NCBI GenBank assembly: GCA_944391865.1
Contig: CALXVD010000002.1
Location: forward strand, 9,645-73,644
DNA: 64,000 nucleotides
Direction: 5' to 3'
Source of the DNA: an uncultured Clostridia bacterium
GTDB lineage: Bacteria; Bacillota; Clostridia; TANB77; CAG-508
Shown here in pieces: positions 14,888 to 15,298 of this stretch (positions are counted from its first letter, which is position 1; each line of letters opens with the position of its first letter). The notes below the pieces were generated by a model that did no database searches, was not told the origin of the DNA, and saw only the letters and a program-made list of their open reading frames with translations. The position numbers were made by a program, and so were the translations under genes.

Positions 14888-15298
14888 ATTAAATTAATTG
14901 CAAAAATTTCTAATTATTAGGATAAATATAAAATATGAATTTTGAAAATAATGTCCTCCAAGGCATACGCGGGTATTCCCCCGCCTCAATGGGCTGTCGG
15001 ACCATTATTTGTCAAAATTAATATTTTTATATTTTAACCCTTTAATGAAAATTAAAATTTTCATTAAATTGATGATTTTAAATTGTAGAGTAGCGCGAAG
15101 AGATTTCCATTTATATTTTTCGAGCGGGTTACGGGTGGGGACCGACAAGCTGGAGAATGTTATATAAATTTGCGCATAGCAAATTTTATTACAGTCTCCG
15201 TGCAGTTGGGGCGCGTGAGAAAAATATAAATAAATCTCTGGGAGCGAACTTAAAAATTAATTTATTTTAATAATTAGAAATTTATCAAATAAATTGCA
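14888..15298 (+). repeat. family D element, about 370-410 nt, GC-rich islands in an AT context; candidate structured RNA or non-autonomous element (copy 1)
   Basis: More than 200 nt (14929-15151) are identical to 40472-40694. A variable internal hairpin is followed by the conserved 3' block cagttggggcgcg.gaga.aaaatataaataaatctctgggagcgaa. Flanked by aaatttctaattatta / taataattagaaattt inverted repeats. Confidence 0.8.

Follow-up and report, generated by a model that had tools for sequence, protein, structure and literature searches.

A stretch of 64,000 nucleotides (nt) from an uncultured Clostridia bacterium (contig CALXVD010000002.1; this whole stretch is referred to here as the window) carries two nearly identical copies of an intergenic element with a strong predicted fold, which raises the question of whether this repeat encodes a functional RNA or whether it represents a mobile DNA repeat or the leader of a neighboring gene. 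An earlier reading of the window from its letters alone (the sequence-only reading) had proposed a large structured RNA of 370 - 400 nt, with both copies on the + strand. The strand assignment was upheld, and the element is indeed structured and covarying; its conserved unit, however, is a rod of about 170 nt. The explanation that we favor, with a probability of roughly 55%, is a free-standing structured RNA gene for which an intergenic repeat, mobile or recombining, serves as the carrier.

Two copies of the element in the window

The proposed identity of the copies over more than 200 nt was exact, as 223 of 223 positions match between 14929-15151 (copy 1) and 40472-40694 (copy 2); likeness begins further upstream, at 14871 and 40414, respectively, with 274 of 281 positions identical. 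Past the identical stretch, about 50 nt diverge between the copies and a hairpin is formed in each, in agreement with the earlier claim that some 55 differing nt preserve the structure. In copy 1, GGAGA...UCUCC encloses UUUGC-loop-GCAAA; in copy 2, AGAUUAUGU...ACAUAAUCU encloses UUUAGC-loop-GCUAAA. Beyond the hairpins the copies agree again through ...AAATCTCTGGGAGCGAA, and the 3' block cagttggggcgcg...aaatctctgggagcgaa is common to both.

Comparison with shuffled sequences gave z-scores for the 5' rod plus core of -5.4 (copy 1, 331 nt) and -5.2 (copy 2, 334 nt), and a folding z-score of -6.0 for the core of copy 1 alone. The G+C content is 42% for the core and 28% for the window. As both copies show these z-scores and the family recurs in other genomes (see below), neither the fold nor the repetition can be attributed to chance.

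Homologues and modular organization

Among species-representative genomes, a pattern scan yielded 14 loci, 12 of which are true homologues. These 12 come from four metagenome-assembled genomes (MAGs) of uncultured low-GC gut organisms labeled "Clostridia bacterium" (RGIG1848 from goat cecum, SGB_3351, BRZ_DA__bin48 and E25__bin59), with 2 to 4 copies per MAG. A metagenome scan contributed six further contigs, two of them only approx. 74% identical to the window core, for 18 full copies beyond the two of the window and 20 sequences in all. GC-rich pattern-scan matches at four loci (L013, L015, L023 and L024) were discarded as chance. A covariance-model (CM) search also revealed a divergent paralogue (L010:4272-4441; 37 bits) with a re-coded long helix, while a search of the window with filters off found no additional copy, the weak matches being other palindromes.

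As most relatives align to the window only from about position 15077 on, the conserved unit is the core of approx. 170 nt (15083-15251 and 40626-40798). The 5' segment of approx. 150 nt in the window copies is an exchangeable module and not part of this core. This module (type a) was found outside the window in only one of the relatives (L017) as well as in contigs of the same species (L001, L003, L027 and L028). At most loci, the 5' module is an unrelated one (type b), likewise a long rod. The 5' module is shortened in L008 and L010 and missing from L011; in L019 and L025, a perfect outer helix of 26 bp extends the core rod in its place. The L010 paralogue carries its type b rod (4480-4600) downstream rather than upstream of the core, and a two-way terminator lies beyond this rod, at about 4678-4708. 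The block ATTAATTGCAA is kept ahead of both module types.

Core structure and covariation

The consensus structure of the core is a single rod. At its base, an outer CGC:GCG helix is followed by a GA/GGGA internal loop; the middle is formed by P1, an AU-rich helix of about 20 bp between AGAGAUUU and AAAUCUCU. P2 (GCG.GUU:GGC.CGC) and P3 (CCGAC:GUUGG) lie below and above a one-sided 11-nt bulge, ACGGGUGGGGA, and the variable apical hairpin forms the tip. P1 corresponds to the pairing that had been predicted between the shared 3' block and an upstream segment, and it is fully compensated in divergent homologues: L019 and L025 have the long helix re-coded throughout, as AGAGGUAU:AUACCUCU and AAAUAUUUUUUAU:AUAAAAAAAUAUUU.

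RNAalifold, applied to a plain MAFFT alignment, yielded 50 pairs, 15 of which were changed on both sides. In a CM alignment of all 20 sequences, 98.3% of the pair cells held standard pairs, and the number of double-changed pairs rose to 25 of 50. None of 500 shuffles reached the observed values, and sliding the partner by 1 to 3 columns left at most 7 double-changed pairs. The element thus shows compensatory change beyond controls and on one strand, as is generally expected of a structured RNA.

Conservation of the unpaired and apical parts follows two different patterns. The bulge ACGGGUGGGGA is identical in all 19 close homologues (19 of 20 sequences overall), and the block AGAGUAGCGCGAAGAG is unchanged in the same 19; ACGGGTGGGGACC is exact in 16 loci, with GCGGG in L011 and L017. 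The long unpaired segment CAGUUGGGGCG has its first C replaced by A in three copies and is otherwise constant in the 19 close homologues. The apical hairpins, on the other hand, fall into at least four diverged types, each present in several copies, with compensated basal stems (GGAGA/UCUCC, AGAUUA/UAAUCU, AUAGGC/GCCUAU and AUAGUC/GACUAU). A UGU:ACA core is common to all types, indicating that they are homologous. The hairpin loops vary freely, those of type 2 being mostly GNNA. Covariation is observed when the types are compared with one another, and also among the sequences of type 3. As types 1, 2 and 3 each occur in at least two MAGs, the two hairpins in the window represent two alleles and not a change private to these paralogues. 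The compensatory change that the sequence-only reading had emphasized is real covariation, but it reflects diverged hairpin types rather than recent change between the two copies.

Strand and coding potential

Three pairs of the core are invariantly G.U, and four more pairs changed to G.U on one side only (three from G-C, one from A-U). The minimum free energy (MFE) was -59.2 kcal/mol for the + strand as compared to -43.7 kcal/mol for the - strand. As the G.U pairs would be A.C mismatches on the opposite strand, and given the advantage of 15.5 kcal/mol, these data favor the + strand and an RNA.

Protein coding was rejected. Two open reading frames (ORFs) across the element, of 52 and 74 amino acids, are interrupted by indels between copies, consistent with the single-base, frame-breaking indels observed inside the core, and an ATG ORF of 28 codons has no ribosome-binding site in copy 2.

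Comparison with known RNA families

The element belongs to no RNA family tested. Rfam 15 (4227 covariance models) was searched, as the sequence-only reading had suggested, at the gathering threshold and additionally at E ≤ 10 for both copies, L018 and L019. At the gathering score, no match to the element was found in the whole window or in 17 homologous loci; at E ≤ 10, the four regions gave only chance matches, the best having 25 bits against a threshold of 100 bits. The only match in the whole-window scan was a 6S RNA (RF00013) at 63322-63516 on the - strand (94 bits, E = 1.7 × 10-17). Plasmid and phage collections (BLAST with the whole element) and viral contigs (pattern scan) yielded nothing, no description of the element emerged from the literature, which was searched by sequence string as well as by topic, and the first 200 supplement files of a survey of structured RNAs in the human microbiome (PMC8040213) contained nothing relevant.

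Four known types of RNA were considered and rejected. For a retron RNA, the ten adjacent ORFs (nine of them downstream) have housekeeping Pfam domains and none encodes a reverse transcriptase, and reverse transcriptases are absent from the ORF tables of all 20 full loci. For a guide RNA of IscB, TnpB or IS110, no such gene adjoins the element, the Rfam models HEARO and IS605-orfB gave no match, and it is the variable part that is base-paired while the unpaired bulge is invariant. For 6S RNA, neither copy matched at E ≤ 10, and the bulge is one-sided with 11 nt rather than a two-sided bubble. For a T-box leader, there was no CM match, no terminator was called after the core, and the downstream genes are unrelated.

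In kind, the element appears nearest to the structured, modular intergenic repeats of Firmicutes (BOX and bcr), and in shape to 6S-like rods. The BOX, RUP and SPRITE repeats of Streptococcus pneumoniae are likewise short, non-coding, multi-copy intergenic sequences beside unrelated genes, and BOX is likewise modular (boxA, boxB and boxC), with partly complementary ends and predicted stable RNA folds. The sequences are dissimilar, however, and the core described here is much longer, covaries strongly, contains an invariant bulge, has its own promoter-like block and nests in heptad palindromes, with 2 - 4 copies seen per genome rather than hundreds. The repeats bcr1-bcr18 of the Bacillus cereus group are also Firmicute intergenic repeats, some of them with conserved RNA folds and compensatory changes. 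Such compensatory change points to a function as RNA in addition to mobility. Unlike bcr, which belongs to another clade and is unrelated in sequence, our element combines two rods with exchangeable modules, and a target-site duplication was not seen in it. 6S RNA, which binds RNA polymerase, is likewise a rod (approx. 170 - 190 nt) with a conserved internal unpaired region, but the loop of the element is one-sided (11 nt against 0), the element is multi-copy and repeat-borne, and the window holds a separate true 6S RNA. Correia elements of Neisseria have terminal inverted repeats, contain promoter elements and give rise to hairpin transcripts; they are simple hairpins of approx. 100 - 155 bp, though, with a TA duplication and no conserved complex interior. 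The traits that distinguish the element are its long invariant bulge, the promoter-like block, the exchangeable rod modules and the nesting in heptad palindromes.

Repeat setting and strain polymorphism

Three features of the element had not been reported by the sequence-only reading: bounding inverted repeats, their sharing with another repeat family, and polymorphism between strains. At most loci, the left boundary is AAATTG[G/T]AATTTG and the right boundary CAAATT[A/C]CAATT(T), both near-palindromes of 13 - 14 bp with an asymmetric 2-bp center; the window contains 7 exact occurrences of the motif as compared to 0.26 expected. Copy 1 adds an imperfect inverted repeat of 36 nt, with 30 complementary positions. 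The same bounding repeats (CAAATT-GK-AATTTG) delimit a family of palindromes of approx. 110 - 140 nt, whose arms consist of 4 - 5 heptads (GTGNGAW / WTCNCAC) around a variable center. The window has seven of these heptad palindromes, and the related MAGs contain members of the family as well. Several loci show remnants of heptads in the interval that separates the bounding repeats from the RNA gene, as if the latter occupied the center of a heptad palindrome.

Between tig and clpP, the site of copy 2, two strains with an identical ClpP protein carry a heptad palindrome of 140 nt in place of 411 nt of the window (40427-40837), with flanks that are 99.7 - 100% identical between strains. This difference is a recent gain, loss or cassette exchange. 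In the two other samples where its locus could be examined, copy 1 was present. Contigs of the same species from other samples, with genes for the identical ClpP or acyl-CoA ligase, end inside the element, and all independent assemblies of both window loci agree in orientation.

The hairpin and + strand T-run that follow copy 2 had been noted earlier as part of its setting; they are present (40838-40893) but belong to the host flank, as strains without the element carry them too, and probably form a two-way terminator shared with tig. Comparison of 40835-40840 with L004:343-365 shows that, where the RNA element is absent, the terminator hairpin of tig continues into a T-run on the - strand. 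In the window strain the swapped segment has taken the place of this T-run, and termination of tig may therefore be less efficient.

The element thus has several traits of a miniature inverted-repeat transposable element (MITE): its ends are inverted repeats, and it is multi-copy, non-coding and polymorphic for presence. No consistently duplicated bases were seen outside the repeats at about 10 loci, the alternative allele holding another repeat instead of an empty site. No transposase was found in the flanking sequences covered.

Proposed explanation and alternatives

The gain, loss or swapping of the element between close strains argues that the RNA gene is cargo of the repeat rather than the leader of a neighbor. 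We hypothesize that the block ATTAATTGCAA, found ahead of two 5' modules that are unrelated to each other, belongs to a promoter, and that the element would be transcribed independently into a stable RNA acting in trans. The G-rich invariant bulge and the wobble pairs flanking it might then be specifically bound by a partner, which would most likely be a protein and possibly another RNA; the rods would serve as a scaffold, and the apical hairpin as a periphery that is either tolerated or confers specificity.

Two candidate partners of the bulge were tried and dropped. Both 5' modules contain a C-rich run complementary to the G-rich bulge, as would suit docking of the module on the bulge, but for the upstream modules shuffled sequences did as well in a fraction of 0.03 - 0.35 of cases, and docking was dropped as evidence because the duplex energies were not clearly better than those of dinucleotide shuffles. 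In a search for trans targets in the window, the only additional site lay in the 6S RNA gene (63374-63386), with 3 mismatches; as 0.53 matches are expected by chance, this site is not significant.

Several points weigh against the proposed free-standing RNA gene. The alignment is shallow (effective sequence number 1.06), with most copies more than 82% identical, and much of the covariation comes from three divergent sequences and from the hairpin types; moreover, the CM alignment behind the strongest counts is fitted to the structure. A simple sigma-70 promoter scan does not call the ATTAATTGCAA block, whose putative promoter role is drawn from its conservation only, and a terminator scan found no clean terminator after the core. 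As neither a target duplication nor a transposase was seen, recombination between the repeats is as likely as transposition. Binding at the bulge is an argument from anatomy, and its partner is putative.

The strongest rival, which we consider a minority explanation, is a selfish, MITE-like DNA element that encodes no functional RNA and whose rods act as DNA hairpins (single-stranded DNA or cruciform) in transposition or replication. Such an element would account for the bounding inverted repeats, the several copies per genome, the contig breaks within the element, the presence or absence between near-identical strains and the membership in a wider family of palindromic repeats. Across species, however, it is the interior and not the ends that is best conserved; an unpaired bulge of 11 nt is invariant, the helices allow G.U but not A.C (with the strand difference in folding energy given above), and a promoter-like block is conserved before two unrelated 5' modules. 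A target-site duplication, furthermore, was not seen.

It is also conceivable, though improbable, that the RNA serves the spread of the element itself, either as a template or recognition RNA for a remote reverse transcriptase, similar to that of short interspersed elements (SINEs), or as a guide or bridge RNA for a recombinase that targets heptad palindromes. The location of the RNA gene within carriers of heptad palindromes, with heptad remnants adjoining the bounding repeats, would fit this scenario, as would the resemblance between GUGGGGA of the bulge and the heptad GUGGGAA, the rapid turnover of the element between strains and the A-rich tail after the core. Against it, no reverse transcriptase, recombinase or nuclease gene adjoins any of the 20 full loci; the bulge is invariant rather than programmable, the variable part is base-paired rather than a loop, and there was no match to HEARO, to the TnpB-associated IS605-orfB or to any other Rfam 15 model. 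With a similarly small likelihood, the rod RNA could be the active part of a new mobile system of gut Clostridia, in which this RNA, with its heptad-like invariant bulge, guides the insertion of its gene into heptad palindromes, or acts as the template for it, by means of a remote recombinase or reverse transcriptase, or it could found a new class of repeat-borne ribozyme or ribonucleoprotein.

A further rival is an element that acts in cis, as a riboswitch, T-box-like leader or attenuator for a downstream gene such as the DUF1836 gene. In its favor, copy 1 and about 8 of 19 loci immediately precede a gene of the same orientation, and no terminator intervenes. In addition, the bulge region GGGUGGGGACCG resembles the T-box sequence GGGUGGNACCGCG, and it likewise lies in a 5'-side bulge. 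At about 11 of 19 loci, however, the element converges on the next gene, and copy 2 faces tig in this manner. The flanking genes differ at every locus (purE, polC, pseudouridine synthase, ctsR, ispG, peptidase and DUF1836), which disfavors both a cis-acting leader and a partner protein encoded by a neighbor. As to whether other copies sit upstream of + oriented genes, a check that the sequence-only reading had proposed, the downstream genes are unrelated and the orientation of the element relative to them is roughly random. Moreover, the core has no alternative terminator/antiterminator fold, and the Rfam T-box model gave no match even at E ≤ 10. The T-box antiterminator (RF00230) shares with the element a 5'-side bulge between two helices with a GGGUGG.ACCG-like sequence, but the element has no Stem I, no specifier, no competing terminator and no downstream aminoacyl-tRNA synthetase or amino-acid genes. 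Overall, the gene contexts largely refute a leader function, to which we assign a very low probability.

An invertible promoter switch of the kind common in gut bacteria, in which a site-specific recombinase flips the segment between the inverted repeats and so toggles the flanking genes, is equally remote: the palindromic-armed inverted repeats with their asymmetric 2-bp center (GT/GG versus AC/CC) around a promoter-like segment would suit it, but every independent assembly shows the same orientation, the conserved covarying RNA fold would be left unexplained, and the same repeats bound palindromes, where inversion changes nothing.

If expressed, the free-standing RNA gene proposed here would represent a new, strongly structured class of bacterial RNA, restricted so far to uncultured Clostridia of low GC content from the gut of humans and ruminants, and its invariant bulge would point to a specific, putative partner. 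A structured RNA gene as the cargo of a repeat that is swapped between near-identical strains would offer a natural system for the study of how small RNA genes spread and diversify through module exchange. The alignment and covariance model can be used for metagenome annotation, with modest practical value until a function or partner is found. The structure is solid, its expression and function putative.

Gene neighborhood and other features

The coordinates of the element and of the associated repeats are given in Table 1.

Table 1. Positions of the two element copies, their parts and related repeats in the window.
Feature	Position	Strand	Basis or remark
Copy 1, left bounding inverted repeat AAATTGTAATTTG, near-palindrome (CAAATT-GT-AATTTG type)	14871..14883	+	Motif enrichment; also bounds heptad-palindrome repeats
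Copy 1, conserved block ATTAATTGCAA with spacer, promoter-like (TTGCAA, 17 nt, GATAAA)	14892..14927	+	Putative promoter
Copy 1, left arm of 36-nt imperfect inverted repeat	14892..14927 with 15260..15295	+	30/36 complementary
Copy 1, 5' rod module type a, exchangeable, outside conserved core	14930..15076	+	MFE fold
Copy 1, type a: long AU-rich stem with GC-rich apex	14930..15027	+	MFE fold
Copy 1, type a: perfect 12-bp hairpin	15041..15068	+	MFE fold
Copy 1, conserved core rod	15083..15251	+	CM 182.5 bits; z = -6.0; consensus structure
Copy 1, P1, AU-rich helix	15099..15121 with 15219..15239	+	Consensus structure
Copy 1, 11-nt 5'-side bulge ACGGGUGGGGA, candidate functional site	15131..15141	+	Unpaired in consensus structure
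Copy 1, type 1 apical hairpin, variable (loop GCAUA within GGAGA...UCUCC)	15151..15200	+	Type also in L016, L017 and L018, with other loop letters
Copy 1, A/U-rich 3' tail and right-end repeat	15252..15295	+	Right end homologous to that of L009
Copy 1, TAATAATTAGAAATTT	15268..15283		Exact complement of 14904..14919
Copy 2, left bounding inverted repeat AAATTGGAATTTG	40414..40426	+	Left edge of strain-polymorphic segment at 40426/40427
Copy 2, 5' rod module type a	40473..40619	+	Identical to that of copy 1
Copy 2, conserved core rod	40626..40798	+	CM 208.3 bits; bulge 40674..40684
Copy 2, apical hairpin, type 2	about 40694..40746	+	GNNA-type loop GCCA
Copy 2, right bounding inverted repeat CAAATTACAATT	40823..40834	+	Polymorphic segment ends at 40837
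Host hairpin and T-run (T-run on + strand), outside element	40838..40893		Unchanged in L004, which is without the RNA element
Heptad palindromes in the window	25243..25349, 26178..26311, 30451..30575, 33048..33160, 37102..37144, 54112..54231, 61511..61617		
Heptad palindrome at tig-clpP in strain L004	L004:343..482		

The position of copy 1 directly upstream of a DUF1836 gene (Pfam E = 1 × 10-17), which the sequence-only reading had noted, was confirmed, but this location is incidental. The gene is split by a frameshift near 15495-15515 into two ORFs on the + strand (15317-15514 and 15561-15803), with the Pfam match confined to the first, and could be a pseudogene or an assembly error. A sigma-70-type promoter at 14836-14864 on the + strand (TTGACT, 17 nt, TAAAAT, with TG) lies just beyond the left repeat of copy 1; it probably drove the DUF1836 gene originally, and the element is now located within the leader of that gene.

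Near copy 2, clpX is also present as two ORFs on the - strand, encoding the zinc finger (39401-39682) and the AAA+ body (38344-39381). As the same split is found on three other metagenome contigs, it appears to be real and not an assembly error. The gene for DNA polymerase I, on the - strand as well, appears split into two or three ORFs (42949-44958, 42516-42899 and 42252-42416). A look-up of the exact trigger-factor protein returned no record.

Two further repeats were observed in the window. A tandem array at 28690-29016 consists of at least 7 units of 33 nt, with 61 - 81% identity to the reference copy. At 34427-34507, a GC-rich double palindrome consists of GGGTCGCTGCCCACAGCGACCC, an AT-rich spacer of 23 nt and the inverted copy of GGGTCGCTGCCCACAGCGACCC; it is unrelated to the other repeat families, and its weak match to the covariance model reflects merely that it is a hairpin.

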